A stretch of DNA of 64,000 nt. Origin: a virus (taxonomy: Duplodnaviria; Heunggongvirae; Uroviricota; Caudoviricetes). The stretch covers positions 1 through 64,000 of IMG/VR virus record IMGVR_UViG_3300027513_000011; one strand, 5' to 3'. This document shows positions 3,902 through 40,141 of this stretch, piece by piece (position 1 is the first letter of the stretch; each line of letters opens with the position of its first letter). The notes under the pieces are model-generated. The model saw only the letters and a program-made list of their open reading frames with translations. It searched no databases and was not told the DNA's origin. Made by a program: the position numbers and the translations under genes.

Positions 3902-4215
3902 ACTCGATTCGCCGTTTTCTCAACAAGAGCCCTGACGGGCAGTTTGGGACGGCTACTGCGGCCGTTTACGTTTCCCACGACGATGATGACGGGACCGTCG
4001 ATATTGTTGAACTGGCCATCACTAACAATGGCGAGAAGGTCAGCTTCAGTCTCTGGAAGGGCTACTCCAACGGTGTTGCGTATATCGCCAAGGAGGGCGG
4101 TTCCATTGACGACTCCCCTCTTAGCGAGGCTCAAGTCGATGCGATGGAGATGATTACCAATCTGCGCGGGATCCTACAGGCGTTTGAGATCGCGGTGGGG
4201 GAACTGACCCCCTAG
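3898..4215 (+). CDS. hypothetical protein (105 aa)
   Basis: ORF track 3874..4215; internal ATG at 3898 coupled to upstream small ORF; plus-strand islet inside leftward operon. Confidence 0.45.
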   Translation: MNSIRRFLNKSPDGQFGTATAAVYVSHDDDDGTVDIVELAITNNGEKVSFSLWKGYSNGVAYIAKEGGSIDDSPLSEAQVDAMEMITNLRGILQAFEIAVGELTP

Positions 4216-5495
4216 CGGGACCAGGAAAGGTGCTTAACCGGCCCTTGGGGGTCGAACTGTGCCCCTATTTCCCCCACATACAGGGCTGCGGTCCTTCTGG
4301 ACCCCCTACCTGCGACCAAACTGGGTGTTCTGCGGTGCTGAACCAGGCTGGGGATCGGGTACCATGTCAGGATCTTCTTAGACTGGAAGTAGCGCGATAT
4401 CCGTAGGTCGTAGTTGTCCTCACGGCGCTTGTCCCCGAACGCGACCATCTCCTCGATGTGGGCGGTGGGGACGACAATGCCGACACCCCAGTTCACCCCC
4501 GGCATCGTGAACCAGGAAGGCAGTGCGCCCCCCCTCAACTTCCGCGACAGGGCACGGCCGGCGTAGAGGCACAATGGGGAGTCGGGGGGCGGGATCTGGA
4601 TGGCCTCTTTGACGAGCTCGATGAAGTTGGGCGGGATAACGGCGTCGTCCTGGAGAACGAGATGGTGGGTGGAGAACTCGTCGTAGGCGAGCATGGAGCG
4701 CCGGCCCGTATCCCAGCGGTTGTTGATCTGATCCCACACGATCGGGCCAACGATGTCCTGGCGGGCCAGCTCATCCACCAGATCTGACACCATCTCCTCG
4801 CGCTTTGGGTGCGCCATGATGCTGATGGATAGAGTCGCCGGCTTCGCCACCGAGTAGCACCATGTATCGGTCTTGCCGAACCTGCCCCGGAGCTCGTAAC
4901 CGTAGGGGGCGAGGAAGTCGTCTACGCGGGTACGGGCCTCGGCGGTGGACGCCTCGATGTAGAGCAGCGGTTGGTACATCTCCAGAATCCGCCGCGCCCC
5001 GGTGAGGACAGGGATCTCGCCGCCCTCAACGTCGATCTTGACGAGAGTGATAGGTTCCCGATAGTCGATCAGGTCATCTATGGCGTACTGGCTGATGTCG
5101 CCTCCTGGCTCGCAGTACGCCATCCCCGAGTTGGTGGGGTTGGGTGAGATCACCTTGACGCTACCGGGTCCGGCCCCCGCCGCGTATGGGAGCGGTATCA
5201 CCCGCGTAGCTAGTTTCACGTTGAACCCAAGGTTCATGTTCAACTGCTTGAAGGATTCCTCACTCGGTTCGAGGGCAACCACCTTGTAGCCCAGCGCCGC
5301 CAGCCAGAGGGTGTGGTTGCCGATGTGCGCTCCCACATCAATCGCCGTCCCCACCACGCCCCGCTTCTCAATATCGGACAGCAGGTCGAACTCGTACCAG
5401 TTGCGATTCTTGATGATGACCCGAGAGATGTGGTCTTGCGGGTTGCTCAGGTTGAAAGTGACCAGACCCGAGGGTGAGTTGAGGGCAACCTTCAC
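4212..5495 (-). CDS. FkbM-family SAM methyltransferase fused to a GT-A-like glycosyltransferase-like domain
   Basis: N-terminal IDVGAHIGNHTLWLAALGY...LVKIDVEGGE resembles FkbM (Methyltransf_21); C-terminal half has LVLQDD DxD-like motif; GTGA-coupled GTG start at ~5495. Confidence 0.55.
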   Translation of the reverse strand: MKVALNSPSGLVTFNLSNPQDHISRVIIKNRNWYEFDLLSDIEKRGVVGTAIDVGAHIGNHTLWLAALGYKVVALEPSEESFKQLNMNLGFNVKLATRVIPLPYAAGAGPGSVKVISPNPTNSGMAYCEPGGDISQYAIDDLIDYREPITLVKIDVEGGEIPVLTGARRILEMYQPLLYIEASTAEARTRVDDFLAPYGYELRGRFGKTDTWCYSVAKPATLSISIMAHPKREEMVSDLVDELARQDIVGPIVWDQINNRWDTGRRSMLAYDEFSTHHLVLQDDAVIPPNFIELVKEAIQIPPPDSPLCLYAGRALSRKLRGGALPSWFTMPGVNWGVGIVVPTAHIEEMVAFGDKRREDNYDLRISRYFQSKKILTWYPIPSLVQHRRTPSLVAGRGSRRTAALYVGEIGAQFDPQGPVKHLSWSR

Positions 5496-5713
5496 TTGTC
5501 GTCCTCGGGGGAGTAGAAGGCCACCCAATCGCTGAACTCTGGAGGAATAACCTTCGGGGCATCCTCCAGACCCTTCTCGATGTTCTTGCGCATCTGTCTC
5601 CTGCCGAATCGCGAACCGACCCAGAACCAGAAGATGGTGAAAATGAGGTCGTGGACGACATGTGACCACGGCCCCATCGTGTTGAAGTCAAACAAGCCGT
5701 TCATTTCGTTCAT
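5492..5713 (-). CDS. small membrane protein (73 aa)
   Basis: hydrophobic helix LIFTIFWFWVG; coupled to neighbours. Confidence 0.4.
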   Translation of the reverse strand: MNEMNGLFDFNTMGPWSHVVHDLIFTIFWFWVGSRFGRRQMRKNIEKGLEDAPKVIPPEFSDWVAFYSPEDDK

Positions 5714-6306
5714 GGGTCAAGATAGAATACTGCTAGGCGATCTGCAAGCACTCCGTACGGTAGCCCGCTCTGTGCAGAGAACTTGTCAACGACCCGCCGT
5801 ACCCCAGGGTTACGCGGGGTGTCGAAGTCGTCAAAAGCTACCACCCCCGTATCCGCCATGTGGGGGAGCCAAGCATCAAGATCAGCTTGGACCGACTGCT
5901 GGGAGTGGTCACCGTCAATGAACAGCATCCCCACAGGATACCCGTACATGTCGGGCCAGCGTTTACCGACCTCAGCTCCGAACCCCTGAATCGCCGTGAT
6001 CTGGAACCTGACCCCCGCCATGTTGATCTGCCTGTAGAACGCCTGCTTCACCTTCGGGTCGGTGAACCCGTGCTTGCCGGACACATTGCCTGGTGCATCC
6101 CAAGGCTCCACGGCGAACACATGGGCGCCTAGCCCGTACTTGGCCCCGTTGGCGAGGTAGCTGGTGGACTTACCCTTGTACGACCCGATCTCAACGATAG
6201 GGGTGGTTGGGGGGATCGTGGCGGCGAGGCGCGCCAGTTCCCGGCCCTCGTCCTCGGGGATTAGGCCGGAGAGGCCGGCTAGGAGGATCCAGTCAGGCTC
6301 GGTCAT
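5710..6306 (-). CDS. class I SAM-dependent O-methyltransferase (TylF/CmcI/macrocin O-MT-like)
   Basis: IVEIGSYKGKSTSYLA SAM-binding and LFIDGDH motifs typical of TylF/CmcI family. Confidence 0.65.
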   Translation of the reverse strand: MTEPDWILLAGLSGLIPEDEGRELARLAATIPPTTPIVEIGSYKGKSTSYLANGAKYGLGAHVFAVEPWDAPGNVSGKHGFTDPKVKQAFYRQINMAGVRFQITAIQGFGAEVGKRWPDMYGYPVGMLFIDGDHSQQSVQADLDAWLPHMADTGVVAFDDFDTPRNPGVRRVVDKFSAQSGLPYGVLADRLAVFYLDP

Positions 6307-6607
6307 TGGGGTTCGTGTCAGAGAAATTGGAAGCCTCTACAATCCCGGTGCCCAATCCGTAGCACCAGCCGCCACCATCTGCAAAGTCGCAGATCAGGTA
6401 ACGGGAAACCGGATTCCAGCCCCATCTGGCCGAAGCGATCAGGAACCAACTGGGAGTACGACCATAGTTGTGAACCCGACCCCATTTACCTACAACGGAT
6501 TCGGCGTCCTCAATGGTTAGCCCATCGGCTTGCTTCACCTGTAGGCGCGGGTGTGATCCAGATAGATATTGATATACGCCCTTCCATAGATTAATCAGTG
6601 CCTCCAT
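6293..6607 (-). CDS. hypothetical protein (104 aa)
   Basis: ORF track; operon packing. Confidence 0.4.
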   Translation of the reverse strand: MEALINLWKGVYQYLSGSHPRLQVKQADGLTIEDAESVVGKWGRVHNYGRTPSWFLIASARWGWNPVSRYLICDFADGGGWCYGLGTGIVEASNFSDTNPNDRA

Positions 6608-6610
6608 GGC

Positions 6611-6817
6611 TCAGTCACCTATCACTTCAATTGTCGGCTCGAAGTTCCACTCCCAAACCAAGTCGCGGACCCCGACACTTTCAAGAAGCTCCTGCACTTC
6701 CTTAACGGTAAGGGACTCGGGATCCCTCGGCGTGGGGAACCAACCAGCGACCTCCCGTGCGGGAAATGACTCCTCAAAGATGAGTGAGATGAGGAATGAA
6801 TCAGCCATCAACGGCAC
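6611..6817 (-). CDS. hypothetical protein (68 aa)
   Basis: ORF track. Confidence 0.35.
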   Translation of the reverse strand: MPLMADSFLISLIFEESFPAREVAGWFPTPRDPESLTVKEVQELLESVGVRDLVWEWNFEPTIEVIGD

Positions 6818-7058
6818 CCCTTACTCCTAGATACACGGCTATTTCCTTTGGCGTCCATAGCTTCTCTCCTCGGAAGTACCAGCCGCACCCGCGCCAGATG
6901 TGGCCGTAATCCCAGTGAACGTGAACGGGGTCAGCCGTTGGATCCTCCTTCGGGCTGCAAGGGTGGATAGGCCATACCTTCCCGTCACCATCTTCCATTC
7001 CGGGGTGGTGACATTCCCATGACGCGAATGCTTCCCTTTTCTCTGGGTATTCATCCAC
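6801..7058 (-). CDS. hypothetical His/Trp-rich protein (85 aa)
   Basis: ORF track. Confidence 0.35.
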   Translation of the reverse strand: MDEYPEKREAFASWECHHPGMEDGDGKVWPIHPCSPKEDPTADPVHVHWDYGHIWRGCGWYFRGEKLWTPKEIAVYLGVRGAVDG

Positions 7059-7239
7059 GGCGGTTCTTCCTTTCGATCCAAGGGGGGTGCAACACGTAGT
7101 AGGGCCAAATAAGAACGCTGATAATGGTACTCCTCACGTCGGTCGCCACCCACGCGGCGACGACCCCGCCCATGACAAGATAGGCCCACAGGCCCCAGAT
7201 GACCGATCCCATCATTTCCGTTTCCTCCTGTTGTTCCAT
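7051..7239 (-). CDS. small membrane protein (62 aa)
   Basis: hydrophobic helices WGLWAYLVMGGVVAAWV. Confidence 0.35.
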   Translation of the reverse strand: MEQQEETEMMGSVIWGLWAYLVMGGVVAAWVATDVRSTIISVLIWPYYVLHPPWIERKNRRG

Positions 7240-7829
7240 AGATGCACGGCGTATGCGTTCGGGTGCTTGTCGCCTTCCCGCTCCAGCTCATTCCACAGGT
7301 ACGGGAAGAAGTACTGCTTGGGCCACAGCATGAACCTATCGGCACCCAACAGGAACGGTGTTATGTACTGTGGACCGGACTTCACGGTGTTCGAGCCCGG
7401 CATCATCGACCTCTCCCCCAGACCCATGATGATGTCCCGCATCACGCCGTAACCTAGCCGGGAGGCGAGGATGGCATTGCTAGCCCACTTCCCCGGTACC
7501 TCCCACGCCGCCCAGCCGTCCGCGTCGACCATCAACGGGTCGATCGGCTTCTGAGGCTTGAAATCCATGTCCACCCACACGCCGCCGTACTGGTGCAGGA
7601 TCTCGTAGCGGGCGATGTCAGAGCGGTATTGATGGGGTTCCTTGGGGTTGATCTCCTCGGCGTTCGCCCAAAGGTGCCAGTTGTTGAGCCCCATGCGCTC
7701 AATGCTTCGCTCGTCCCACCACATGTACTCCCAGTTCGGGTGCAGGGTTTTCCACGCCGCCCGGTAGCCGAGGTATTCGATAGGGATTTCCGACCCTATC
7801 CACATCTGATGGATGATCTTGGGTATCAC
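7212..7829 (-). CDS. glycosyltransferase, GT32-like (Och1-type DXD sugar-binding region)
   Basis: PKIIHQMWIG N-terminal motif and RSDIARYEILHQYGGVWVDMD DXD region characteristic of Gly_transf_sug/GT32. Confidence 0.65.
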   Translation of the reverse strand: MIPKIIHQMWIGSEIPIEYLGYRAAWKTLHPNWEYMWWDERSIERMGLNNWHLWANAEEINPKEPHQYRSDIARYEILHQYGGVWVDMDFKPQKPIDPLMVDADGWAAWEVPGKWASNAILASRLGYGVMRDIIMGLGERSMMPGSNTVKSGPQYITPFLLGADRFMLWPKQYFFPYLWNELEREGDKHPNAYAVHLWNNRRKRK

Positions 7830-8191
7830 GGCAACTGCTCCGGGAATCCTTGCAACGCTGACACAGCGTTGAACTTCCTAGCCACGGCCAACGCCAAGTC
7901 GATGCCGTAATACGTCGCCAGAAGGTCTAGGTAGCAGAGAGTGTCAGCTATCTCGTTGGCGAGGTCGTCCAGCAGCTTCGTTCTGTCGGGGTCGAGGGGA
8001 CCGACCAGGTTCACGTCGGCGCGTCGGATCTTCTTGACCACGTTGCAGGTTTCCCCGGCTTCGCCGGCCATCGCGTTCGACCAGTCGGCACCGGACCAGC
8101 CGGACGGACCGGGTTCGGGGAACCCAGGGTGCCATCGCTCGCATCGGGAGCGATTCACTTCGGAGAAGTGAGCGAATGTGAGATCGGTCAT
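7826..8191 (-). CDS. MazG-like nucleoside triphosphate pyrophosphohydrolase
   Basis: EVNRSRCERW...AMAGEAGETCNVVKK matches MazG EExxE/AGExGE pattern; internal ATG gives ATGA overlap with upstream gene. Confidence 0.5.
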   Translation of the reverse strand: MTDLTFAHFSEVNRSRCERWHPGFPEPGPSGWSGADWSNAMAGEAGETCNVVKKIRRADVNLVGPLDPDRTKLLDDLANEIADTLCYLDLLATYYGIDLALAVARKFNAVSALQGFPEQLP

Positions 8192-8415
8192 CGGTGTGCC
8201 TTCCATGCAGCCAGTGATTTCGAGAGATTGACCAACGATCTGTCCAAGTCCCATGACAGCTTCCATCTGGCTTCGGAACACGGGTTCTTTTCCGGCTCGC
8301 ACAACCTCGGAGCGCCGCGGACGCCGTGGTTAGGGCAAGTCCATAGATAGGCGGGAGATTCGCTGTCGAGCCATTCACGGGCCTCAGCGGTGGTGACTTG
8401 GTTGGGGTGGGACAT
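8188..8415 (-). CDS. hypothetical protein (75 aa)
   Basis: ORF track; coupled. Confidence 0.35.
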   Translation of the reverse strand: MSHPNQVTTAEAREWLDSESPAYLWTCPNHGVRGAPRLCEPEKNPCSEARWKLSWDLDRSLVNLSKSLAAWKAHR

Positions 8416-8621
8416 TATGGGCAGACCACCGTAAGGTTCTCCGAGTAGCCGGTGCGAATGGTATGGAGACGTGCCCCATGATCCTCACAGACGATGACGA
8501 TGGGGGGCGGGGTGTCGTGGGGTTCCTCTGTGACCCCCATCCAATATCCGAACGAGAACACGGCGATGGCTATGACGAGACGGACAACGAAGATAAAAAG
8601 GCCGTTCAATGTGTCGCTCAT
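8415..8621 (-). CDS. small membrane protein (68 aa)
   Basis: TM helix LFIFVVRLVIAIAVFSFGYW. Confidence 0.35.
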   Translation of the reverse strand: MSDTLNGLFIFVVRLVIAIAVFSFGYWMGVTEEPHDTPPPIVIVCEDHGARLHTIRTGYSENLTVVCP

Positions 8622-8848
8622 AGTTCCTCCACTATCTGCGTGTGTCCGGCATGGAACTCCTCAGCGACCTCCTGCATCCACGATCCGCTCTGCGTCCACT
8701 TGGATCCACAGGAGCAGAACACAACCGACTCGTCACCCCTGGTGGCATCAACCGCATCCTGCTCCTCGGCGCGAACCTCTAGGTAGTGCGCGTAGCAGAG
8801 GCCACGGTTGAGAACGGGTTTGTCGCAACTCTCTGCGGTGCAGCTCAT
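8618..8848 (-). CDS. hypothetical Cys-rich protein (76 aa)
   Basis: internal ATG (MSCTAESCDKP) with ATGA overlap to SPFH gene stop. Confidence 0.35.
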   Translation of the reverse strand: MSCTAESCDKPVLNRGLCYAHYLEVRAEEQDAVDATRGDESVVFCSCGSKWTQSGSWMQEVAEEFHAGHTQIVEEL

Positions 8849-9906
8849 CCCTGCCCATCCTCCTCTGACCCTATGCTGTAGGGATCGCTGTCCGGTTCTT
8901 CCTCGGGCATCACGGGTGGGTTCTCGTCCGGCAACTGCACGATCACGTCTAGCGGCTCCCCGTCGCCCAGCAGCGTAGAGGGCAGCCTGCCGTCCCACTG
9001 GGTCAACCGCATGTAAGTCAGAATGTCGATGGTCAGCGACTCCTGAATCAACCTGTTCGCTTCGGCCACACCTTGGCCCTCCAGGATCGCAGCCTGCCGT
9101 AGACCCTCAGCCTCTTTGATGGCCTGCTCGGCCTCGAACTGAGCCTGCTCGACCCGCCTCTTGGCCTCGGCCACGTTCTGCTCAGCGATAACCTTGTCCC
9201 TGACCGACTGCATGAACTCCTTGTCGAACACGGCGTCAGCGACGTTGGCGTAGTCCACGATGATGCCGTACTCGGCCAACTGGCCTGCCACCGCCTCAAC
9301 AATGGACACGGCGAGCTCGTCCCTGTTCTGCGGGAAGTCCTCGGCTGTCACCTGCCCGATCGCAGCCTTGGCGTGCTGGTCGATGGCGGGCTTGATGACC
9401 GTATCGCCGTAGTTCATGCCGACCTCTTGGTAGATCTCGGCTGCGCGCTTGGGGTCGATGTGGACGTTCACCGCGATGGGAACCACGATCTCCTGGAGGT
9501 CACTGCTTTGGGCGTAGAACTTGTCGTAGGTGTAGACCTGTGTGCGCACGTTTACGGGGGTGACGTGCTGGAGCCACGGGATAACGATGGACAGACCTTC
9601 GGGGCGCTCGTCGGGGGATACGCCACCGCTGAGGCTGTACACGACGCCGCGGTGACCCGCAGGGACGAAGGCGAGGGCCGGGGAGACGAGGAGCATGAAG
9701 GCGAGGGCGTAGAGGGCGATACGGAAAGACTGAGCGCCACTAGCCGGCCTCATGTACTCTGTCAGGGGCCGTTGTTCCCCATCCTCGATGACTGGCAGTG
9801 GCTTGTTGAACGCCCTGCGCCGCCTCATCCCCTGCAGGGTGAAAACGAGCGTGATGGCAAGCGGTACTAGCCAGATCGCAGGCCCCACTATGGTTTGGTA
9901 ATTCAT
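8845..9906 (-). CDS. SPFH/band-7 (prohibitin/HflK/C-like) membrane protein
   Basis: two N-terminal TM helices, SPFH-like core then long EA-rich coiled coil (AEQNVAEAKRRVEQAQFEAEQAIKEAE), acidic C-tail. Confidence 0.65.
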   Translation of the reverse strand: MNYQTIVGPAIWLVPLAITLVFTLQGMRRRRAFNKPLPVIEDGEQRPLTEYMRPASGAQSFRIALYALAFMLLVSPALAFVPAGHRGVVYSLSGGVSPDERPEGLSIVIPWLQHVTPVNVRTQVYTYDKFYAQSSDLQEIVVPIAVNVHIDPKRAAEIYQEVGMNYGDTVIKPAIDQHAKAAIGQVTAEDFPQNRDELAVSIVEAVAGQLAEYGIIVDYANVADAVFDKEFMQSVRDKVIAEQNVAEAKRRVEQAQFEAEQAIKEAEGLRQAAILEGQGVAEANRLIQESLTIDILTYMRLTQWDGRLPSTLLGDGEPLDVIVQLPDENPPVMPEEEPDSDPYSIGSEEDGQG

Positions 9907-9955
9907 CGTTCCTCGGTTTCCTTATTGTCGTAGAATTGGCTCGTGATCGGTGCAG

Positions 9956-10330
9956 TCACGGCGCCACGTTCCAGTCTTCCAACGGATCAGAGAAGCAGCG
10001 CCGACACGGGGCGAGCCCACCCCGGATTGCCTCACCAGCGGTGAGCGTGGAGTCTGCGTATCGCCCGCACCTTGTGACCTTGTGCGACCACCGGACGCCC
10101 TGATGGAACACACGCCCTTTACCCACACGGACAACACCAATATCCTCGTCTTCGTAGGTCATGGCAATGGACGGGAACACCGGCAATACTCCCAAACACT
10201 GGGAGTCCGGCGAGTGACCCAGGCGTGGCCAAACATCAAGCACATCGGACGCTTCAACCACGGCATCATGGAGTTCTTTCTCATCGTTCCTGCTCTCCGT
10301 CCTCTCGCTCGATCGTATCTCTCTCCCCAA
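9956..10330 (-). CDS. hypothetical protein (start uncertain)
   Basis: ORF track; overlaps next gene by 50 nt, real start may be internal ATG near 10162. Confidence 0.3.
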   Translation of the reverse strand: MGREIRSSERTESRNDEKELHDAVVEASDVLDVWPRLGHSPDSQCLGVLPVFPSIAMTYEDEDIGVVRVGKGRVFHQGVRWSHKVTRCGRYADSTLTAGEAIRGGLAPCRRCFSDPLEDWNVAP

Positions 10331-10784
10331 CTCTATCGTCAGGCGGCTGTCGGGTCAATGACTTGTCGCCAGGGTAAGGAAAAGTCTCGTTCCAGTCTGT
10401 CGTGAACCCGCCGTCGTACAGCGGCCAGATCTTGTTGTTCGCCACGATGCTGCGGCACTCCTCCACCGTCATTCCCATCCCCTCGCTGATGGCGGCGCAG
10501 AACCCGGTGATAGCGGATTCGATATCAAGCTCGGGGTCATGGGAGGCTGCGTTCTCAGCCCGACACGATGCTGCCATGCCGGGGTTGCGGGTGCGTTGGC
10601 CGGTCGAGGTCACCACCACCCCGGCGCAGTAGCCCTCAAGGTCGGATTCGGCTAGTCGCCAGCGATTGGCGTCGAAAGGCGGAATGTGGCCCTGGGGTTG
10701 GAACAGGTAGGCGAAGGCGGCGAGCACCGCGAGGCCGGAGATGATGACGAAGAAGTGGGTTCGGTAGCGCCTAAACCACTTCAT
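10281..10784 (-). CDS. membrane-anchored hypothetical protein (167 aa, N-terminal TM)
   Basis: TM helix FFVIISGLAVLAAFAYLF; acidic C-terminus. Confidence 0.45.
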   Translation of the reverse strand: MKWFRRYRTHFFVIISGLAVLAAFAYLFQPQGHIPPFDANRWRLAESDLEGYCAGVVVTSTGQRTRNPGMAASCRAENAASHDPELDIESAITGFCAAISEGMGMTVEECRSIVANNKIWPLYDGGFTTDWNETFPYPGDKSLTRQPPDDRVGERDTIEREDGEQER

Positions 10785-11007
10785 CGAAGATCACCTTATC
10801 TGGTCTGTAGCCCCTTACTCTGTCTATCAAGACCCACCTACATTGAACGGGAATACGATGAGTTGGCCCATCTGAGTAAACATCTATCGACAGTAACACC
10901 TTGTCTGGGTGGGGATTGAGGCTGGTACAAGGTTCACCGATGCCGGGAACATTGTAGTACCAAAAGTATTTCTTCTGTCGGGCGCACACCCATTCATACT
11001 CGGTCAT
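10771..11007 (-). CDS. hypothetical protein (78 aa)
   Basis: ORF track; coupled to FtsH-like gene. Confidence 0.35.
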   Translation of the reverse strand: MTEYEWVCARQKKYFWYYNVPGIGEPCTSLNPHPDKVLLSIDVYSDGPTHRIPVQCRWVLIDRVRGYRPDKVIFDEVV

Positions 11008-13028
11008 GCGCTCAGCACTCCATCCATCTCGTCAAGCAGCTCGTGGATCTCCGTGCCCCTGACCTCGCCCTTGTCCGCGATGAGCCTAGCCACTGCCTCG
11101 ACCTGTGGCACCTTGCTCGTCAACAGAAGCCCCACCTTTTCCAACGCCTCCTCAAGTATCGCCTCGGTCGCCAGCCCTAGCGCAACCTCGTCCTTGTCGT
11201 AACTACCGATCTGTCCACCATGACCGAGGGTGACCATGTGCATTGCCCTCTTTGTTGCTGCCGGGCCGTCTCCGCCGTGACCGTTGGACGCCTGGCCCAG
11301 AATCAACTTCTCGGCCACGCGGGAAGCCAACGAGATCTGCACGTCAGCCAACAGATCCTCCCTGGTCAGCAGCCAGTCATCCCATTTCGAGGTCGGGGCC
11401 ACGAAACCACCCTTGCTCCCTCGTGGCAGAATACTCGCCGTCCAGATGTCCTGGCGGTGTCTGTTCAGGTAGTGGAAGGCAACGGCGTGTCCGGCCTCAT
11501 GCACGGACACGCCCCACACGGCCTCCTGGCGTTCCCACATGTCGCCCGGCTCCCCGAACTTGATGATTGACATGGCCTTGGTCACATCGTCAAAGGTCAC
11601 CACACCCGGCGTGTCCCGACCATCCCTGAACGTCAGCAGCACGGCCTCGTTCACCACGTCCTTGATGGAGGCGCCGGAACCCTGATGGTCGTGGCGAGCG
11701 ATCCAGGCGATGTTGTCCTCGGTGAGTGTGTGGCTGGCGATCTTCCCCAGATACCCCTCATAGGTCCGCTGCCGGCCGTCAGCCCTCGGGTAGTCCACCT
11801 GCACCTTGCGTCCGAACCGCCCAGCCCTGAGCAGCGCCGGGTCCAGCACTTCCAGCCTGTTCGTGGCGCCCAGCATCATGTAGCGGTAATGCGGTGGCGG
11901 GATCGGCTTGAACCCGAGCATCTTCAGCATCTTGTTCAGGAAGCCGCGAGGTTCCTCCATGCCGTCCATCGCGGCAAGGAAGGTGGTGAGCGCCTGGGAG
12001 GACTGGTTGGAGATGAAGATGGGGGCGGGCTCGTCGGGGTCGTAGGGGACACAGCCCTCATAAACCGGAGTTGAGGTAGCGGAGCCGTTGATAAAGCGTT
12101 GGTACGATTCCTTTACCGCCGAGAAGTTCATGCCCAACCTGTCCAGCGTCTCCCCTATCACCCCGCCGCGGCTCCCCATGACATCAATCTCGTCGTAGAA
12201 CACGATGACGCCACCATGTCTACGAGCTTGTTTACGGATCTCCCTGAACAGCATGAAGATCTTGAGCTCGGCTATCCCCATGAAGGTCGAGGCTGTGGCT
12301 CCCGGTGGGTACAGGATCAGAGGCTTGGAGCTCGCGTTGGCCGCAGCCTTAGCTAGATAGGTCTTACCGACTCCGGGCGGGCCATACAGAATGACACCCT
12401 TCGGTAGATACCCACCAGCCTCCTCTACCGCTGTGGCATCGTTAAGTATCCTTACCTGCTCCATGATCGCCTCACGGGCCTTGTCTTGCCCCCACACATC
12501 GTCAAATGTCGTCTGGATGGTGCCGGGCTGGATCACCTTGTACGTTCCCATCCTCACCATCGAGTAGAAGAAGAACACCATGTTGAGCATCGAGAACATG
12601 ACGCTGATGGCGATGGCGATGAAGGTGGGGACGTTCTCGTAGGCGATGGGGATGGTGCGGATCACGCAACTGACAGCTCCCTCGCACTTGTCGGTCAGTG
12701 TGGAGAGGATCGACCCGTAGATGTAGAGGAACACGAACCATGTGAAGAGGCGCTGGAGCCGGATCCAAGCCTCGGGGGGCACGCGCTTCTTGTACCTGCC
12801 CAGGTACTCGGCTGCCCCCTCGTGCCACTTCGCCACGGTGCTGCTGGTGACCAGCAGTGTCTCGTAGACGGACCTCGCCACGAAGAAGGCGAAGGTGAGG
12901 ACAAGGAAGCGTGCCAAGAGGGAGGTCTGGGCCGGCATCGGGTCGGCCCACTCGTTCGCCACCAGCCATAGGGCGATGACCGCCGGTACCTTCAGCTTCT
13001 CGACCAGCGGTTTCTCAACCCGCTTCAC
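11004..13028 (-). CDS. FtsH-like ATP-dependent zinc metalloprotease (AAA+ plus M41 peptidase, 2 TM)
   Basis: Walker A GPPGVGKT, Walker B VIVFYDEID, SRH ATNRLEVLDPALLRAGRFGR, zinc site HEAGHAV, two N-terminal TM helices; start set to GTG ~13028 with GGAAGGG RBS (ORF track extends to 13229). Confidence 0.75.
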   Translation of the reverse strand: MKRVEKPLVEKLKVPAVIALWLVANEWADPMPAQTSLLARFLVLTFAFFVARSVYETLLVTSSTVAKWHEGAAEYLGRYKKRVPPEAWIRLQRLFTWFVFLYIYGSILSTLTDKCEGAVSCVIRTIPIAYENVPTFIAIAISVMFSMLNMVFFFYSMVRMGTYKVIQPGTIQTTFDDVWGQDKAREAIMEQVRILNDATAVEEAGGYLPKGVILYGPPGVGKTYLAKAAANASSKPLILYPPGATASTFMGIAELKIFMLFREIRKQARRHGGVIVFYDEIDVMGSRGGVIGETLDRLGMNFSAVKESYQRFINGSATSTPVYEGCVPYDPDEPAPIFISNQSSQALTTFLAAMDGMEEPRGFLNKMLKMLGFKPIPPPHYRYMMLGATNRLEVLDPALLRAGRFGRKVQVDYPRADGRQRTYEGYLGKIASHTLTEDNIAWIARHDHQGSGASIKDVVNEAVLLTFRDGRDTPGVVTFDDVTKAMSIIKFGEPGDMWERQEAVWGVSVHEAGHAVAFHYLNRHRQDIWTASILPRGSKGGFVAPTSKWDDWLLTREDLLADVQISLASRVAEKLILGQASNGHGGDGPAATKRAMHMVTLGHGGQIGSYDKDEVALGLATEAILEEALEKVGLLLTSKVPQVEAVARLIADKGEVRGTEIHELLDEMDGVLSA

Positions 13029-13082
13029 GATAGTTGTCGCCCTTCCTGTCGTACCCTCCACTGTAACACACCCTAGAGGGTC

Positions 13083-13112
13083 TTGACAACCCACCATTCC
13101 GTGCTGTAAGTT
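13083..13112 (+). promoter_or_regulatory. sigma-70-like promoter TTGACA-N18-TAAGTT; start codon at predicted TSS (leaderless)
   Basis: hexamers read directly; GTG of 13119 gene ~7 nt after -10; divergent intergenic region. Confidence 0.4.
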
Positions 13113-19090: not shown

Positions 19091-19780
19091 ATGCCTCAAG
19101 TATCGAACACTGACGACATCGCCGCCGCTTTGAGCGTTGTCGAAGAAGGTGGCCTGGTCCCTGCTGACGAGATCCCTGGTGCCCCCGACCCGGTTGTCCG
19201 CAAGCTCGCCTATCTGGACGAGATGGATACCGAAACTCTCCAGCGTCTCAGGGAGGCCCGCATCGGGTCGAACCTGCACGCCATGTACATTGCCTGGCGG
19301 CGACGGTCGGCTATCTCCCTCTCCTCCCAGGGCTTCAAGATCAAAGAGATTGCCGCCCTCCTCGACGTGGCCCCAGGCACCATATCTCAGGACTTGCGGC
19401 GGGTCCGCGAGGAGTACGAGGGCCTGACCACCCGTGAATGGGCTGTCATTGTCGAGGAACGCATCATGGAGCTCGACCAGGACATCTTCACCCTGCGTCG
19501 GCAGTTGGACACCATGCCTCACCGCTACATCGAGAGGCCGGCAGATGACGGCGAGGTTGAACTACTGGACATCGGTCCCGACATCGACCAGCAGCTCAGG
19601 ATCCGCGACCGCATCATGGCCCTCAACGACCGGAGGGACAAGCTGCTCGGGGTGGACAAGGCTGCCGCTGCGCGCCACGTCGAGACTAAGAAGCTGGAAG
19701 TGGTGCTCTCGTTCGACCAGACCTCACAGGTGCGGGAGATCGAACCCACCATGATCGAGGCCGAGATAGTCGATGGCTAG
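19091..19780 (+). CDS. terminase small subunit (HTH)
   Basis: HTH IKEIAALLDVAPGTISQDL; immediately upstream of and overlapping large terminase; first ATG at 19091 (ORF track GTG 19073). Confidence 0.55.
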   Translation: MPQVSNTDDIAAALSVVEEGGLVPADEIPGAPDPVVRKLAYLDEMDTETLQRLREARIGSNLHAMYIAWRRRSAISLSSQGFKIKEIAALLDVAPGTISQDLRRVREEYEGLTTREWAVIVEERIMELDQDIFTLRRQLDTMPHRYIERPADDGEVELLDIGPDIDQQLRIRDRIMALNDRRDKLLGVDKAAAARHVETKKLEVVLSFDQTSQVREIEPTMIEAEIVDG

Positions 19781-21221
19781 CCTCGAAATCAAGCTGCCGG
19801 GCTTCCACTCCAAGCAGCAGCACATCTACGACAACATGCGTCGGTTCACCATCATGCGCGTGGGCCGACAGTTCGGCAAGTCCCTGATGGCTGCTGTGGT
19901 GGCGATCATTCGCGCCCAGATGAAGCCCAATCAGGTCATCATCGTGGTGGCGCCGACCTACAAGCAGACTCAGGCCATCTATGGGCGCATCCGTACCCTC
20001 TTGAAGCCGTTGTTCCGGCAGGACATGGGTGACGGGACACTGTTCGTCACCGAATACAAGGCCGACCTGCGCTTCGATTTCCACAACGGGTCGTCAATCA
20101 TGGCTGCCTCGGCCGACAATCCCGACAAGCTGCGTGGCTACTCGATCAACCTCATCATCATTGACGAGGCGGCGTCGATGGACAAAGGCGAGGAGTTGTG
20201 GTTCGAGGTCGTGCGCCCTGCCCTTGCCGTCACCCACGGGGACGCCATGTTCCTCTCCACCCCGAAAGGTAAGGACAACTGGTTCTACCACCTGTGGAAG
20301 CAGTCTGAGTACGACATCGCGGAGAAGGGTGACAACTCCGAGTGGGCCTTGTTCCACTTCAAGTCCACCGACTCGCCGTACTTCTCCGAGGCCGAATCCG
20401 AGGCCATCCGTGCTGTGGGAGAGAACTACTGGCGACAAGAGATCCTTGCCGAGTTCACCGCTCATGCCGGCACCATCATTGGCCCCGAGGCGTTCAAGTA
20501 CTACACCACCGTCATCCAGGAAAGTAACCTCTACTTCCTGCACGGGGCTGAGATGACGCCCGAGGCGAGCTGCTATCGAGCCATGACGGTTGACCTCGCT
20601 CTCACCAAGGGCACTTCTTCTGACTACACCGCCTTCGCTCTAGGGGACATGACGAGGTACGGCACCTGCTTCGTTCGTGACGTGTACCGTGACAAGATCC
20701 TCGGTCCCGACCTTGCCAATAAAATCATCGGGTATGCAAAACGCAATGCAGTCCAGGCCATCCACATCGAGTCCACCGCCTTCCAGCTTACTGTGGTGCA
20801 GGAACTTGAACGACGCGGGGTTACAGTCGCCAAGTTGCCAGCCAAGGGTGACAAGATTGCCCGTGCCTCCCTTATGGGGATCCGCATGAATGCCAGTCAG
20901 TTTCTCTACCAGCGCGAAGCCCCGTGGTTCTCGATGGTGATTGACGAAGTGACCACCTTTCCTGACGACGGCGCCCATGACGACATGGTTGACGCCCTCG
21001 CCTACCTGTCCCACGTTTCTGCCCAGTACGCCGTAGACGCCTCGCCGGCTGTGTTCGGTGGGGTGTCGCTCGATCAGGTTGCCCAAGCGGCTCGCCACAA
21101 TCCGAACGAAGATCGTGAGGTACTTCATGCTACTCTGCGGGTAGAGAAGATGGAAAGGGACCGTCAACGTGCAATGGAACGCGGCGAGATGGCCCTTAAG
21201 AGGATGAGAGGACCGATGTGA
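19773..21221 (+). CDS. terminase large subunit
   Basis: Walker A VGRQFGKS, IIIDEA Walker B-like, C-terminal nuclease-like acidic residues; position before portal. Confidence 0.8.
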   Translation: MASLEIKLPGFHSKQQHIYDNMRRFTIMRVGRQFGKSLMAAVVAIIRAQMKPNQVIIVVAPTYKQTQAIYGRIRTLLKPLFRQDMGDGTLFVTEYKADLRFDFHNGSSIMAASADNPDKLRGYSINLIIIDEAASMDKGEELWFEVVRPALAVTHGDAMFLSTPKGKDNWFYHLWKQSEYDIAEKGDNSEWALFHFKSTDSPYFSEAESEAIRAVGENYWRQEILAEFTAHAGTIIGPEAFKYYTTVIQESNLYFLHGAEMTPEASCYRAMTVDLALTKGTSSDYTAFALGDMTRYGTCFVRDVYRDKILGPDLANKIIGYAKRNAVQAIHIESTAFQLTVVQELERRGVTVAKLPAKGDKIARASLMGIRMNASQFLYQREAPWFSMVIDEVTTFPDDGAHDDMVDALAYLSHVSAQYAVDASPAVFGGVSLDQVAQAARHNPNEDREVLHATLRVEKMERDRQRAMERGEMALKRMRGPM

Positions 21222-21969: not shown

Positions 21970-23529
21970 ATGCCCAAGGTTTCTGAAGCCCTTACCGCTG
22001 CGAACATGCCCTCCGCGCGGTCGGGGGTCGCTGCCCTATCAACGGGTTCTCGCAGCAACATGTTCGCTGCCCACGGGATCCAGACTGCCACCCAACAGGA
22101 GATCTCCGAGAAGCAGCGGTTGGTCTGGGATGCTTACGACAACATCCCCGAAGTCCATTTCCTCGGTAACGGGGTCATCGGCGCCTCGGTCGAAACCCTG
22201 TCCTTCTACCCGGCTATGGACGATGTTTCCTCAGCGTTCAACTACGCCCAACCGATCGAGGAATCCGATGAGTACGAACAGGGCGACCTCGATCTGATCC
22301 ACAGCCTCGTCGCCGGCATCAAACCCCCGTGGGGTCAGCAGTCAGACTTCATGCGGGCGCTCGCCATCAACCTGTTCTTCCCCGCCGAGGTCTACCACGC
22401 CGCGACATACGAGCGTGGCAAGGACGTGTACACGCATCAGCTCGTCCCGAAGCAGAACATCATTCTTCCGAAGAAGGCGGCGAACAACAAAGTCATTGAG
22501 TCGTACAAGGATCCCATTTCGGGTCAGAACGTGAAGGTTGGCGATTCGGGAACCCTTCAGCGCATTTGGCGTCCACACCCGGCTAACCCTAACAACGCCG
22601 ACTCCCCGATGTTCGCTGTCCTCGAAGTTTTGGATGAGATGAAGTGGATTCAGCGTCTCATTTCGTCCATGCTGAAGAAGCGCGTTTATGTCTCGAAAAT
22701 GCTGATAATGACTAACAGCATTCTGGGACCGGACTTCGATCCCCAGAGTCAGACCTCATTGGCCGGAGCTGTCAACAAGGTCGAGAAGTCCCTCATCGAC
22801 CAGATGAATCGCAATATCCAGAGCGATTCCGACTCCGCAGTTTTGCCGATGCTCGGGTTCGTGCCCTTTGAGCATGTCAAGGACGGGTTCAACCTGATTG
22901 ACGTGGCCGGCGACCTCCCTGAGATGCTTCTCCAAGTGCTGGAAGCGGCTCAGCGTCGGTTGGCCAACGGTGTCGACGTGCCGGCCGAGTTCCTGCTCGG
23001 AATGGGTGGATCGTCACATTGGAGTGCCTATCTGATCCGCGACCTCCTCTGGCAGCAGCACATCTTCCCGCTGGCCGGACTCATCGCCTCGTCCCTCACC
23101 AGCGTCTTTCTCCGGCCGGCTCTCCGGCGTGCTCAGGATGGTGGCAGATTCAAGGGCGACCCTGAGAAGGTCAAGCTGTGGTTCCGATCCAACCAGCTCC
23201 AAACCCACCCAGAGATCTTCACCTACCTCGTCACCGCCTACGACAAGGGCATCATCGGGAAGGGTCCGATCCTCGCAGCCCTCGGCATTCCGCCAGAGGC
23301 CGCGATCACCGACGCCGAGCTGAAGCTGTGGATCCAGTTGAAGCTGGCCGGTATGGGCACCACCGACGAGGTTGGCGAAGGATCCTCCATTGATGTTGAG
23401 AACGGGACAGTGGTGCTGCCCAACGGCGTGTTCCCGTCTCCCTCGCGGACCCGTAGTGGCGGAACAGTGAGTGGTGATGGCCCGGCCGATAGGAGCCGAG
23501 CCGGCGAGGATGGCCCGTCCCAACGTTGA
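21970..23529 (+). CDS. portal protein
   Basis: 519-aa protein between terminase and prohead protease; synteny-based plus size/composition. Confidence 0.6.
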   Translation: MPKVSEALTAANMPSARSGVAALSTGSRSNMFAAHGIQTATQQEISEKQRLVWDAYDNIPEVHFLGNGVIGASVETLSFYPAMDDVSSAFNYAQPIEESDEYEQGDLDLIHSLVAGIKPPWGQQSDFMRALAINLFFPAEVYHAATYERGKDVYTHQLVPKQNIILPKKAANNKVIESYKDPISGQNVKVGDSGTLQRIWRPHPANPNNADSPMFAVLEVLDEMKWIQRLISSMLKKRVYVSKMLIMTNSILGPDFDPQSQTSLAGAVNKVEKSLIDQMNRNIQSDSDSAVLPMLGFVPFEHVKDGFNLIDVAGDLPEMLLQVLEAAQRRLANGVDVPAEFLLGMGGSSHWSAYLIRDLLWQQHIFPLAGLIASSLTSVFLRPALRRAQDGGRFKGDPEKVKLWFRSNQLQTHPEIFTYLVTAYDKGIIGKGPILAALGIPPEAAITDAELKLWIQLKLAGMGTTDEVGEGSSIDVENGTVVLPNGVFPSPSRTRSGGTVSGDGPADRSRAGEDGPSQR

Positions 23530-25039: not shown

Positions 25040-26845
25040 ATGTTTCCTACTCAGGAGATTGGAAGAATGAACGACAAGGAGCTTGCTGAGCTTCTGGAGC
25101 GGTTCGGTTGCACCGATGGGTGTGACGACATGGAACTCGCTGACCTTGACAAGCTCCACACCGAGCTCGCAAGCCGGCGTTCTGCTTTGGAGGATTCCGC
25201 GGACAAGGACAACCTGACCAAGATCGGTCAGTACACCGCCCTTATCGCCAAGGTGGAGAGCAACATTGCGCATCTGCGCGCCGAGTTTGCCGCCGAGGTC
25301 GAGAAGGTCAAGTCTCAGGCTCTTGGCACCTTCAACGCCGAGACTGAGGAAGTGGCCGAAGTGGCCGAGGTTGAGGCTGTTGTGGAAGCGGATGACGCTG
25401 CCATTGATGACAGTCTTGCCAAGTTCACCGCCGCCCGTCCCTCCACCAACGTCGAGGACGAAGGCCCCGGTAAGGCGTTCAGGGGAAAGGTTGTGTACGC
25501 CCCCAACTCGGACGCCGAGGGCAATCCCATCGGTGGCGAGAGGCTGAACACGTCGGTCGATCTGGCACGGGCCATCTCGAACTCCATCGACCAGCTTGGC
25601 AACTTCGCCGGCCGCATGAACGTGATCCACGGCATGTACGAGAACGACGCCGCAATGGTGCAGCTCTCGGCTCCGATGGATCCCGAGCGGACCACTGTGG
25701 AACTGGCCCAGGCTGTCGAGCTCTACAACCAGCGCCAGGAAGAGCACCTGACGGCTGACGGTTCGTTCTGCGCACCGATCACCCCGTTCTACTCCTTCTG
25801 CGATCTGGCGAACGAGGACATTTCGACCACGCAGCAGAGCCTCCCGACCGTGCGTACCATCCGTGGCCGCGTGCAGTACATGGAGACTCCCACGCAGGAT
25901 CAGTTCTTCGATCAGTGGGACGGCATTGACGACGATCTTTTCCAGGGTGTCGGCACCCGGTTTACGGAGGTTGATTCGCAGGCTGTCTCGGCTGCCGATG
26001 AGTCCACCTGGAAGCAGTGCGTCGAGGTCGACTGCCCGGAGCAACAGCCCCCGGCTGAGCTTGAGGCGCATTACACCTGCGTTACCTACAAGCACTTCAC
26101 CTGGAAGGCTTACCCGGAGTACATCGACCTGTACACCCGCAAGGCCCTGCTCGCCCACGACATCAAGGAGAGCCTGAGCCTGCTCCGGCAGATCCAGGGT
26201 GTCGCCCAGACCGGGCTCACCTTCGAGGCGTTCCCCGGCTCGATCGGCGGGTTCTTCCTGGCACTGGACACGCACGCAACTGCCTACCGCGAAGCCTACT
26301 GGCTGCCTCGGACGCAGGTTCTCGACATCGTTCTCCCCGAGTGGGTGCTGAACATGCTGAGGGCTGCCTACGTCCGGCGTGCCGAGGGCACTGAGGAAGC
26401 TGAGGCCCTGCGCGCTTCGGACTCGTTCTACACGAGCCTGTTCGCAAGCGTCAACCTGCGGCCCAACTTCATCACCGGCTGGCAGCGTCTGGCGACGAGC
26501 ACTGATGGGGCCGGCACCTTGCTGGACCCGATTGCGGCTCGCCCCGATGGTGTCGCCGTGTCGAACACCTGGCCCAACTCGTTCCTCGCCCTCCTGTGGG
26601 TGCCCGGCTCTGTGGTTCTCCTGGAGGATCCGAGCTGGAACATCGCACTGGAGCGGCTGCGGGACACCACGCTCCAGCGGCAGAACAAGTACAGCCTGTT
26701 CGTAGAAACCTTCTACGGGCTCGCCTACCCCTGCCCCTACGCCGTTCAGGAAATCCTGTTCAACTTCTGCCCCACCGGGCACGCTGCTGGCAGGGAAACG
26801 CTGAACTGCGCCAACCTGACGAGCGAGAACTCCCCCTCCTCGTAG
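25040..26845 (+). CDS. major capsid protein (HK97-like) with N-terminal coiled-coil delta/scaffold-like domain
   Basis: 601 aa following protease; N-terminal coiled coil then large globular domain; followed by hairpin terminator. Confidence 0.65.
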   Translation: MFPTQEIGRMNDKELAELLERFGCTDGCDDMELADLDKLHTELASRRSALEDSADKDNLTKIGQYTALIAKVESNIAHLRAEFAAEVEKVKSQALGTFNAETEEVAEVAEVEAVVEADDAAIDDSLAKFTAARPSTNVEDEGPGKAFRGKVVYAPNSDAEGNPIGGERLNTSVDLARAISNSIDQLGNFAGRMNVIHGMYENDAAMVQLSAPMDPERTTVELAQAVELYNQRQEEHLTADGSFCAPITPFYSFCDLANEDISTTQQSLPTVRTIRGRVQYMETPTQDQFFDQWDGIDDDLFQGVGTRFTEVDSQAVSAADESTWKQCVEVDCPEQQPPAELEAHYTCVTYKHFTWKAYPEYIDLYTRKALLAHDIKESLSLLRQIQGVAQTGLTFEAFPGSIGGFFLALDTHATAYREAYWLPRTQVLDIVLPEWVLNMLRAAYVRRAEGTEEAEALRASDSFYTSLFASVNLRPNFITGWQRLATSTDGAGTLLDPIAARPDGVAVSNTWPNSFLALLWVPGSVVLLEDPSWNIALERLRDTTLQRQNKYSLFVETFYGLAYPCPYAVQEILFNFCPTGHAAGRETLNCANLTSENSPSS

Positions 26846-37629: not shown

Positions 37630-38112
37630 TCAAACGTGCGTCCATGTCCTCCGAGCCACGATTTGACCCACATTGGTTCGGTCTACCCCGTAAAGCCTAC
37701 CAAGGGTTGCTTTCCTTACGCCCATCGAGGCCAATGTTCTTATCCTCATCACATCTTCTCGGGCGAGCTTGCTGCTCCAGATCCGCTCTCCCCTAGCCTT
37801 CGCTCTCACATACCCCTCATCATTGAAGGGCAGTCTGCCCTTGGCGTAGGCATCCTTCATGTTGTCGCTGCGAGTGCCTTGGAACAAGTGCGCCGGGTTA
37901 CAGCAGGGAGGATTGTCGCAGTGATGACAGATCATTAAGTCGCTATCCAACCCACCGATGGCAAGATCGTATGCGATTCTATGGGCCATCTCTGCCTTGC
38001 CGGCAATCTTGAAGCGTCCGTACCCTGTCGGGTCGGCAGCAGCCATCCAAGGCCAACATTCGTCGTCGCCTCGACTGTCTACCTTTGACCAGAACCTATG
38101 TTCGTAGTCCAT
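37630..38112 (-). CDS. HNH homing endonuclease
   Basis: HHCDNPPCCNPAHL...GTRSDNMKD HNH_3-type motif. Confidence 0.65.
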   Translation of the reverse strand: MDYEHRFWSKVDSRGDDECWPWMAAADPTGYGRFKIAGKAEMAHRIAYDLAIGGLDSDLMICHHCDNPPCCNPAHLFQGTRSDNMKDAYAKGRLPFNDEGYVRAKARGERIWSSKLAREDVMRIRTLASMGVRKATLGRLYGVDRTNVGQIVARRTWTHV

Positions 38113-38208
38113 CTATCCATTCTACCACAGGTGGAGCAGTGGGAAATCGAATCCCAGTCCCGAGCCGAGCCTTCCGGTTTACGGTCGGTCGAACGCCATC
38201 CGCTGCCC

Positions 38209-38484
38209 CTAGCGCACCCGCTCCAGTGTACCGCCGTGGTCGTCCTGTAGCCAGATGTCGCCGGAAGTGTAAATAATGTAGGTCCGGTTGGTTCCTACCC
38301 ATCCCGACCCGCGGGGAATGAACTCAACCCAACGATACGGCCCCTTATCCTCCACGTTCCACTCTTCATCCCATTCTTCAACAGTGTTCAGATCATCCCA
38401 TGTCCCATACTCTGGGAAGGTGCCAGGCTCAACCTCGCACAGCTTCGACACCTTGCGATCACTACTGACTAGCTTCACGTTCAT
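38209..38484 (-). CDS. hypothetical protein (~91 aa)
   Basis: ORF track 38209..38556; internal ATG MNVKLVSS. Confidence 0.35.
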   Translation of the reverse strand: MNVKLVSSDRKVSKLCEVEPGTFPEYGTWDDLNTVEEWDEEWNVEDKGPYRWVEFIPRGSGWVGTNRTYIIYTSGDIWLQDDHGGTLERVR

Positions 38485-38493
38485 CGCTCTTCC

Positions 38494-39018: not shown

Positions 39019-39163
39019 CACATGAGATACCGATTCAACCTTTCTGTCTCCCCGTGGCGCCAAGGCCAGGTGGTGACAGCGAAAGAACTTGGTGATAGGC
39101 TGGGCGGGCTATTGATCCGCAACTTCATCACCGAGATCGAGGACAAGCAACGAGCGAGGAAGA

Positions 39164-39652: not shown

Positions 39653-39717
39653 GCGATGAGGGCGACAGCGACCCGCTAGCCCTCGACCTTTCACCACTGG
39701 GACGAGGGGCCGAGGAG

Positions 39718-40014: not shown

Positions 40015-40141
40015 TGTGGTATACTGGTACCGTCAACGCAGGGGCCTAGGCTCCGAGCAGCGACAGGGGAAGTGGCCCCCCTCACCTTTACGAGCGTTAC
40101 CTCCTTCCGCCCGTACTGGTGAGGGGGGCTTCTGCGTCCGG

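Follow-up and report, generated by a model that had tools for sequence, protein, structure and literature searches.

A three-gene phage cassette that encodes an FtsH-like protease, an orphan membrane protein and a prohibitin-like SPFH protein

Proteins of the SPFH family are partners of FtsH-type proteases in bacteria and in mitochondria, and how SPFH cages control these proteases is debated, a closed inhibitory cage being set against an open portal that admits membrane substrates (PMC12048511). In E. coli, residue R191 of HflK contacts the periplasmic domain of FtsH (PMC12048511). Among phages, FtsH homologues of the jumbo Pseudomonas phages PA5oct and MIJ3 (Wroclawvirus) were reported in 2019, function unknown (PMC6892783), and a role in secretion or lysis was proposed for the Kayvirus SPFH protein MbpS (PMC7150955). 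Here we describe a cassette of three genes found in a 64-kb stretch of tailed-phage DNA (positions 1 to 64,000 of IMG/VR record IMGVR_UViG_3300027513_000011, hereafter the window). The cassette encodes an FtsH-like protease, a small membrane protein (the middle protein) and an SPFH protein. Phage FtsH and phage SPFH proteins have each been annotated already, and what is new here is the membrane domain of the protease, the orphan subunit and the viral origin. An earlier reading of the window made from the letters alone (the sequence-only reading) knew of no characterized paired module of this kind in phages, and we likewise found no paper on the middle protein or on an FtsH–SPFH pair in a phage; literature coverage was incomplete and this absence is not proof. 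The three genes are as follows.

8845-9906, minus strand: prohibitin-like SPFH/Band_7 protein of 353 amino acids (aa), identified by Band_7 and phrog_200.
10281-10784, minus strand: middle subunit of 167 aa, homologue of the conserved middle gene.
11004-13028, minus strand: FtsH-like membrane AAA+ zinc metalloprotease of 674 aa, identified by Pfam AAA and Peptidase_M41.

The conserved unit is made up of these three genes in the order FtsH-like protease, 167-aa middle protein, SPFH protein. The trio was present in every informative related locus, from 98% down to approximately 41% identity, and the flanks were unrelated. When loci were reached through the protease, six distinct contig types were obtained (12 to 146 kb, with proteases 41-52% identical to that of the window), and all of them had the middle gene and then a Band_7 gene downstream. 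The middle gene of these contigs encoded 156-185 aa without a Pfam match, its homologue in the window is 10281-10784, and the neighbouring genes were wholly different between the six types. When the search was started from the middle protein, 24 further loci were found. The SPFH gene followed in 16 of the 16 loci with room downstream, and the protease preceded in all of those with room upstream. Two of these loci, L129 and L137, were considered as loci without a protease and were rejected as such, a C-terminal remnant of the protease being present beside an inserted methyltransferase or HNH gene; both were judged by eye only. No other gene besides the three was common to the distant loci. The sequence-only reading had named a failure of the two genes to co-occur in related phages as the result that would undo the pairing, and the pair was present in every informative locus. 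These findings indicate that the FtsH-like and SPFH genes are a real pair and not chance neighbours. At 39 other viral FtsH-homologue loci (IMG/VR) and in PA5oct, no SPFH gene was found within approximately 8 kb.

Spacing and sequence divergence also linked the three genes. At 11 of 19 loci there was a 4-nt overlap between the stop codon of the protease gene and the start codon of the middle gene. At the next junction, between the middle and SPFH genes, the gap was 11-19 nt at 10 of the 19 loci, and most of the remainder had an overlap. Divergence of the three proteins was correlated pairwise (Mantel r 0.71-0.90, p ≤ 0.009). The ratio of nonsynonymous to synonymous substitution rates (dN/dS), measured against the close relative L126, was 0.10 for the SPFH gene, 0.05 for the middle gene and 0.11 for the C-terminus of the protease. 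Judged by these ratios, all three genes are under purifying selection.

It could be argued that the genes lie side by side but work separately. The protease would then carry out regulatory proteolysis in the cytoplasm, as host FtsH does with lambda CII, and the SPFH and middle proteins would stabilize or organize the membrane in the manner of flotillin or PspA. SPFH genes do stand alone in hundreds of phages (SPFH-like matches were found in 559 GenBank phage records), PA5oct-like phages have FtsH without SPFH, and insertions between the genes are tolerated. However, throughout the family co-occurrence was strict, order was fixed and the proteins diverged in parallel; genes of unrelated function would not readily be expected to overlap by 4 nt, as these usually do; and the middle family showed no fusion and was placed in the cassette at every locus examined. 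We therefore regard separate jobs as unlikely.

The protease matched Pfam AAA (PF00004, E 1.5e-20) and Peptidase_M41 (PF01434, E 6.2e-16, 59.3 bits compared to a cut-off of 29.9), and all of the motifs that had been quoted for it in the sequence-only reading were reproduced. Its main features are listed below.

12552-13007, minus strand: N-terminal membrane domain, from the hydropathy of 31 homologues and AlphaFold2 secondary structure.
12663-12686, minus strand: C115-x5-C121 in the second outer loop, from invariant columns.
12360-12383, minus strand: Walker A, GPPGVGKT.
12276-12284, minus strand: pore-1 loop F-M-G, in which F249 is invariant and G251 near-invariant.
12183-12209, minus strand: Walker B, VIVFYDEID.
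11943-12158, minus strand: extra AAA-module sequence, residues 291-362 (approximately 70 aa), unaligned to solved FtsH.
11808-11867, minus strand: sensor-1 and second region of homology ATNRLEVLDPALLRAGRFGR, with invariant N390, R401 and R404.
11487-11501, minus strand: HEAGH zinc site, H510, E511 and H514.
11268-11270, minus strand: third zinc ligand D587, which aligns with the Asp of the 'END' motif of T. thermophilus FtsH.

The AAA module was of the classic clade, with Walker A and B, the pore-1 loop, the sensor-1 Asn and the arginines of the second region of homology, and the M41 domain had both HEXXH and the third Asp ligand. Walker A and B, N390, R401, R404, R407, F249, H510-E511-H514 and D587 were invariant in 31 homologues (39-88% identity), and since the catalytic residues are invariant the protein is predicted to be an active ATP-dependent protease. 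The best PDB sequence matches were to FtsH (E approximately 5e-47). The AlphaFold2 model had a predicted local distance difference test score (pLDDT) of 82, and Foldseek gave TM-scores of approximately 0.76 to FtsH, AFG3L2 (0.76-0.77) and YME1. The scores against the FtsH equivalog models were far lower than the cut-offs, with 216.4 bits compared to 600 for TIGR01241 and 146 bits compared to 1008 for NF008004 (PRK10733).

The membrane domain was not that of FtsH. The sequence-only reading had described a complete FtsH layout with two N-terminal transmembrane helices; this did not hold, as four helices were predicted (residues 8-28, 37-61, 85-111 and 133-159, with a cytoplasmic helix at 63-82), FtsH_ext (PF06480) gave no match in the protease at E ≤ 0.01, and two inserts were found in the AAA module. 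The outer loops were short, approximately 8 and 20 residues, and the second of them carries the invariant cysteine pair. The ATPase and protease domains are thus predicted to face the cytoplasm, with almost nothing of the protein outside. Within the extra AAA-module sequence, residues 291-340 had pLDDT values below 50, and a poorly ordered stretch of approximately 50 aa stands in place of the short pore-2 loop after Walker B. A conserved PRG..N...P.PPP element precedes the sensor-1 strand, with P360, R361, G362, N365 and P375 invariant.

A search of 5.8 billion proteins placed the protease in a family of approximately 100 clusters, of approximately 650 aa and 38-87% identity, all of them metagenomic. 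Cellular-type FtsH ranked below this family, at no more than 37% identity. The exact protease sequence was found in a single record, a 75-kb Joint Genome Institute (JGI) metagenome contig, and a DNA search with the 4.9-kb cassette region gave no match among GenBank phages. No match was obtained in IMG/VR when it was scanned with the single protease sequence, and profile scans of IMG/VR and GTDB with the protease alignment gave only cellular-type or giant-virus FtsH, at no more than 31% identity (33% on two short fragments); these profile scans say little on prophage copies in bacterial genomes because generic motifs (GPPGTGKT and HEAGHA) had been chosen.

The source is a metagenomic contig, and the ftsH of the GenBank 'phage' MaAM05 resembles bacterial DNA. 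One might accordingly ask if the cassette has no phage role, being either host ftsH DNA that was acquired recently or is in decay, or else a chimera of the assembly. This is effectively refuted, as phage genes flank the cassette on both sides, the family stands apart from cellular FtsH (the 37% ceiling given above), and the cassette recurs in many independent assemblies with dN/dS of approximately 0.1 and invariant catalytic residues.

Two inteins were noted in homologues of the protease. In L140 (2990-5995) an intein of approximately 340 aa is located at the F-x-G of the pore-1 loop, and protein P0032 has a LAGLIDADG-containing insert in the M41 domain after 'RIWFA', ending VVTHN|S, so that inteins occur at two different conserved sites.

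The PA5oct and MIJ3 FtsH proteins were approximately 27% identical to the window protease. As in the cassette, the PA5oct ftsH adjoins the gene of a membrane partner, with the annotation 'FtsH-interacting integral membrane protein'. In contrast to the cassette, neither an SPFH gene nor a homologue of the middle protein was found within 6 kb of it. The PA5oct gene (L150, MK797984.1, 169433-182884, in a 287-kb genome) lies in a proteostasis island with ClpX, ClpS, ClpP, a heat-shock protein and ribosomal protein S21. The 'ftsH' of Microcystis phage MaAM05 (L156, MW495066.1, 195542-208615) was rejected as a comparator because its neighbours purB, glgX, proS and lepA are bacterial housekeeping genes; that record may be contaminated or chimeric.

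The membrane protein encoded by 10281-10784 had been described in the sequence-only reading as sitting between the pair. It was indeed located there, with one transmembrane helix, but it is not a bystander: by its conservation it is a core partner, as invariant in the cassette as the other two. Its N-terminus is positively charged, and the helix at approximately residues 10-28, a helical domain of approximately 115 aa and a disordered tail follow. Four cysteines were invariant (C53, C74, C96 and C110), and the motifs GHIPPxDAN, WPxYDG and WN..YP were present. The charge distribution of the N-terminal anchor and the four invariant cysteines fit an exported domain, and the domain is therefore predicted to be extracytoplasmic. 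The model was confident (pLDDT 90.4) and no structural relative of it was found, so that on the model the protein is an orphan family with a new fold without known relative. An exhaustive profile search of 1.84 billion representatives gave only 85 members of this family. Full-length members had approximately 150-190 aa, and the shorter matches look like fragments. No fusion protein was found in that search. The one long match to the profile, P0321, was inspected individually and rejected as a fusion, being an unrelated repeat protein.

The SPFH protein matched Band_7 (PF01145) over residues 81-254 with E 3e-30 and 106 bits, compared to a cut-off of 23.6, which places it in the SPFH superfamily. 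Its N-terminus has two hydrophobic helices with an Arg/Lys-rich cytoplasmic loop between them, a pattern kept in 19 homologues; one homologue had a single helix. Because of this helix pair and the Arg-rich cytoplasmic loop, the SPFH domain, the coiled coil and an acidic tail are predicted to be on the outer side of the membrane; the region read as a coiled coil is the one that aligns with the C-terminal helical region of prohibitins. The top PDB matches were prohibitins (E 1.2e-21 and 4e-19, range 1e-21 to 1e-18, identity approximately 25-30%), QmcA was marginal (2e-4), and no HflK or HflC chain was present among the PDB matches at E ≤ 1e-3. NCBIfam hflK (TIGR01933) gave 27.1 bits compared to a cut-off of 159.4 and hflC gave no match, which leaves the protein outside HflK and HflC. 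Each locus had a single SPFH gene and no HflK and HflC pair. Going by the PDB sequence matches, the protein appears prohibitin-like rather than HflK/C-like; the sequence-only reading had correctly described a two-helix SPFH protein with a coiled coil, but the HflK/HflC architecture it proposed was not supported. Stand-alone phage SPFH proteins of phrog_200 (Kayvirus MbpS, Faecalibacterium phage FP_Toutatis, Bruynoghevirus) share with it Band_7, an N-terminal membrane anchor and the same PHROG, and were at most 33% identical to it.

The protease gene is the first of a leftward operon, and the cassette thus heads an early-looking divergent operon. A 90-bp divergent region separates it from a rightward operon starting at 13119 and contains a GGAAGG ribosome-binding site and the following promoter candidate.

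13060-13089, minus strand: sigma-70-like promoter candidate, TTGTCA-18 nt-TG-n-TACAGT, a consensus match only.

A GTG at 13028 was better supported as the start of the protease than longer readings, because the 87%-identical homologue P0002 begins MKRVEKPL and because of the upstream GGAAGG and the sigma-70-like site. In L151, which is temperate (integrase and helix-turn-helix repressor), the cassette was found downstream of the integrase/repressor switch, in a rightward early block that also has Dam, WhiB and methylase genes. The positions in the window operon and in L151 suggest that the cassette is expressed in lytic development.

On balance, we think it probable that the three proteins belong together in a single machine for membrane proteolysis, which the phage builds in the cytoplasmic membrane of its host during infection. 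By analogy with HflK/C and FtsH, and with prohibitins and m-AAA, the SPFH protein would encircle protease hexamers as a ring or cage; the earlier comparison to FtsH with an SPFH cage was in this respect a reasonable one. The cysteine-rich middle protein may supply in trans the outer-face contact that in cells is made by the periplasmic domain of FtsH, and may bridge the membrane domain of the protease, perhaps its CX5C loop, and the prohibitin-like ring. This outer-face link is proposed because HflK contacts the periplasmic domain of FtsH, which the phage protease lacks. The complex would be expressed from the head of the early-looking operon, and would extract and degrade membrane or membrane-proximal proteins of the host or of the phage independently of host FtsH.

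The cassette resembles the FtsH–HflK/HflC system of E. coli in that a membrane-anchored AAA+/M41 protease with all catalytic motifs conserved is encoded with an SPFH protein, and in the predicted topology, which places the SPFH domain outside the membrane and the catalytic domains on its cytoplasmic side. In contrast to the E. coli system, the phage protease has four predicted transmembrane helices and no periplasmic domain, one prohibitin-like SPFH gene stands instead of the HflK/HflC pair, and an obligate single-pass third protein with four cysteines and two inserts in the AAA module have been added. The mitochondrial PHB1/PHB2 ring with the m-AAA protease (AFG3L2/paraplegin; Yta10/Yta12) likewise pairs a prohibitin-type SPFH protein with an FtsH-type protease. 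The phage version differs from it in being viral, in being encoded in one operon with a single two-helix prohibitin-like gene, and in having a protease without an intermembrane-space domain; identity was approximately 25-30%. The cassette can be regarded as a compact, virus-encoded version of these systems, in which a single SPFH protein and a protease without an outer domain are accompanied by a small subunit dedicated to the system. As these three evolve together, the essential contacts and components could be sought here in a natural system that is simpler than the cellular ones. If the proposed machine is real, some phages would bring their own regulated membrane proteolysis rather than rely on or inhibit host FtsH, and this raises the question of which membrane proteins a virus needs destroyed. 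The middle protein, as a confidently modelled new fold, is of interest in itself.

Several points weigh against a single machine of this kind. The topologies were drawn from hydropathy, the positive-inside rule and AlphaFold helices. The proposed mode of contact would be new, since the m-AAA and FtsH precedents possess an outer domain. GenBank phages reached at most approximately 33% identity to the protease, none of them had a close relative of it, and no family member was found in a cultured phage. The early timing and the promoter were read from a consensus match and gene position only. Moreover, the window and a few relatives carry other genes between the trio, so that tight translational coupling must be dispensable. 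The coupled operon of the sequence-only reading needed one correction, as two small lineage-specific open reading frames (ORFs) are interleaved with the trio in the window; in most loci the three genes overlap or are 11-19 nt apart.

The window is a tailed-phage fragment in which the following structural genes were present.

19773-21221: large terminase.
21970-23529: portal.
25040-26845: major capsid protein.
51061-55404: tape measure protein.

The capsid protein matched 696 GenBank phage records, the majority being phages of Actinobacteria (Mycobacterium, Microbacterium, Gordonia and Streptomyces). No WhiB gene was found in the window by motif search, and WhiB genes were present in related cassette-bearing contigs. 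From the capsid relatives and these WhiB genes, the host is probably an actinobacterium and the window of actinophage type. More tentatively, and with the odds on the whole against it, a lineage of uncultured actinophage-type viruses may have evolved a minimal, self-sufficient machine of three subunits: an FtsH-type protease with four transmembrane helices and no outer domain, a disulfide-bonded single-pass protein of new fold in place of that domain, and one prohibitin-like cage protein. Early in infection this machine would clear selected proteins from the host membrane, for example membrane-embedded defence effectors, receptors or transporters. If so, early removal of host proteins would be a previously unrecognized strategy of viral take-over or counter-defence, and for work on mechanism no simpler FtsH–SPFH system would be known.

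The same machine could serve another purpose. As a membrane-level exclusion or defence module it would act against competing phages by degrading a receptor, an injection channel or membrane proteins of the incoming phage. The flanks vary by contig type, as in mobile accessory cassettes, all three proteins are membrane proteins, one carrier (L151) is clearly temperate, and the window phage has counter-defence-type genes, a polynucleotide kinase-phosphatase (PNKP) and an RNA ligase. However, the L151 cassette is located in the rightward early block and not beside the repressor and integrase, the usual place of genes expressed in a lysogen, and the window ORFs that were scanned did not include an integrase. 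PADLOC-DB v2 gave only generic AAA similarity (IetA, TRIP13) for the protease and nothing for the SPFH or middle proteins. No bacterial copy was seen in one scan of bacterial genomes, which is a weak point as that scan was saturated by cellular FtsH. An exclusion role is, in our judgement, quite improbable.

FtsH-type proteases degrade small membrane proteins, and it is conceivable, as the sequence-only reading had suggested, that the cassette times lysis, the protease degrading a holin, an antiholin or another lysis factor and the SPFH ring gating access to it. In Kayvirus phages the gene for the SPFH protein MbpS is part of the lysis region (PMC7150955), and L001 has a Peptidase_M15_4-like gene directly upstream of the cassette. 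In contrast, endolysin and holin families were not found anywhere in the 64-kb window, no lysis gene was conserved beside the cassette in other loci, and the early-looking divergent operon headed by the cassette continues with MazG-like, glycosyltransferase and methyltransferase genes. Because no lysis gene was found in the window and the operon looks early, gene position gives the holin-timing and lysis/lysogeny roles of the sequence-only reading no support, and we consider lysis timing very unlikely.

With one membrane proteolysis machine kept as the preferred reading, the small ORFs in and next to the cassette in the window can be described. They are as follows.

10771-11007, minus strand: 78-aa ORF between the protease and middle genes, with no family match; lineage-specific.
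9956-10162 (longest reading 9956-10330), minus strand: 68-aa cysteine-containing ORF between the middle gene and the SPFH gene; lineage-specific.
8618-8848, minus strand: 76-aa zinc-finger/HNH-like ORF, its ATG overlapping with the stop codon of the SPFH gene; weak HNH PHROG matches and Zf_WRKY19.
8415-8621, minus strand: 68-aa ORF with one hydrophobic helix, after the 76-aa ORF.

The 78-aa ORF was absent from all other loci, including the 98%-identical L126, which at that site has an HNH endonuclease and a 205-aa ORF instead. The ORF at 9956-10162 gave no Pfam, PHROG or PADLOC match, and an identification of 9956-10330 as an Ada-type zinc protein was unsupported by any family search. The ORFs at 8618-8848 and 8415-8621 were common to the window and its close relative L126 and were not found in the distant loci; they lie outside the conserved cassette. 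Both junctions of the cassette were insertion hot spots, occupied by small ORFs, HNH endonucleases or DNA methyltransferases depending on the lineage, and the inserts were located as follows.

Window: 10771-11007 and 9956-10330.
L126: 328-1256.
L129: 47-853.
L137: 1-420.
L151: 8977-9612.

In L126 and L137 the ends of the HNH ORFs copy the last residues of the protease (..DEMDGVLAT and ..GDEIHAMLERAA). That these ORFs end with the terminal residues of the protease suggests that a homing endonuclease entered the protease gene at its 3' end.

Downstream of the cassette, the leftward operon (window 4212-8302, minus strand) has four genes that could be a sugar-modification set.

7826-8302, minus strand: MazG-like protein.
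7212-7829, minus strand: DXD-motif glycosyltransferase.
5710-6306, minus strand: Methyltransf_24 protein.
4212-5669, minus strand: 485-aa protein with an FkbM methyltransferase and a glucosyltransferase-like region.

A glycosyltransferase was likewise found downstream of the cassette in the related contig L005.

The head block (approximately 19.8-37.5 kb, plus strand) and the tail block (51-63.7 kb, plus strand) of the window were split by a block of approximately 12 kb, mostly on the opposite strand (window 37630-50100), an unusual layout for a siphovirus-type genome. The content of this block is nucleic-acid metabolism, with HNH, an ERCC4 nuclease, a Cas4/RecE-like exonuclease, PNKP and RNA ligase. 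The part of it at 46683-50097 contains the following genes.

46683-47636, minus strand: PNKP.
47605-48663, minus strand: T4-type RNA ligase.
48827-49519, minus strand: protein with a dATP/dGTP diphosphohydrolase N-terminal domain, PF18909.
49516-50097, minus strand: NT5C nucleotidase.

PNKP and the T4-type RNA ligase make up a transfer RNA (tRNA) repair pair. In L005, RtcB, an RNA ligase and PF18909 were also located near the cassette.

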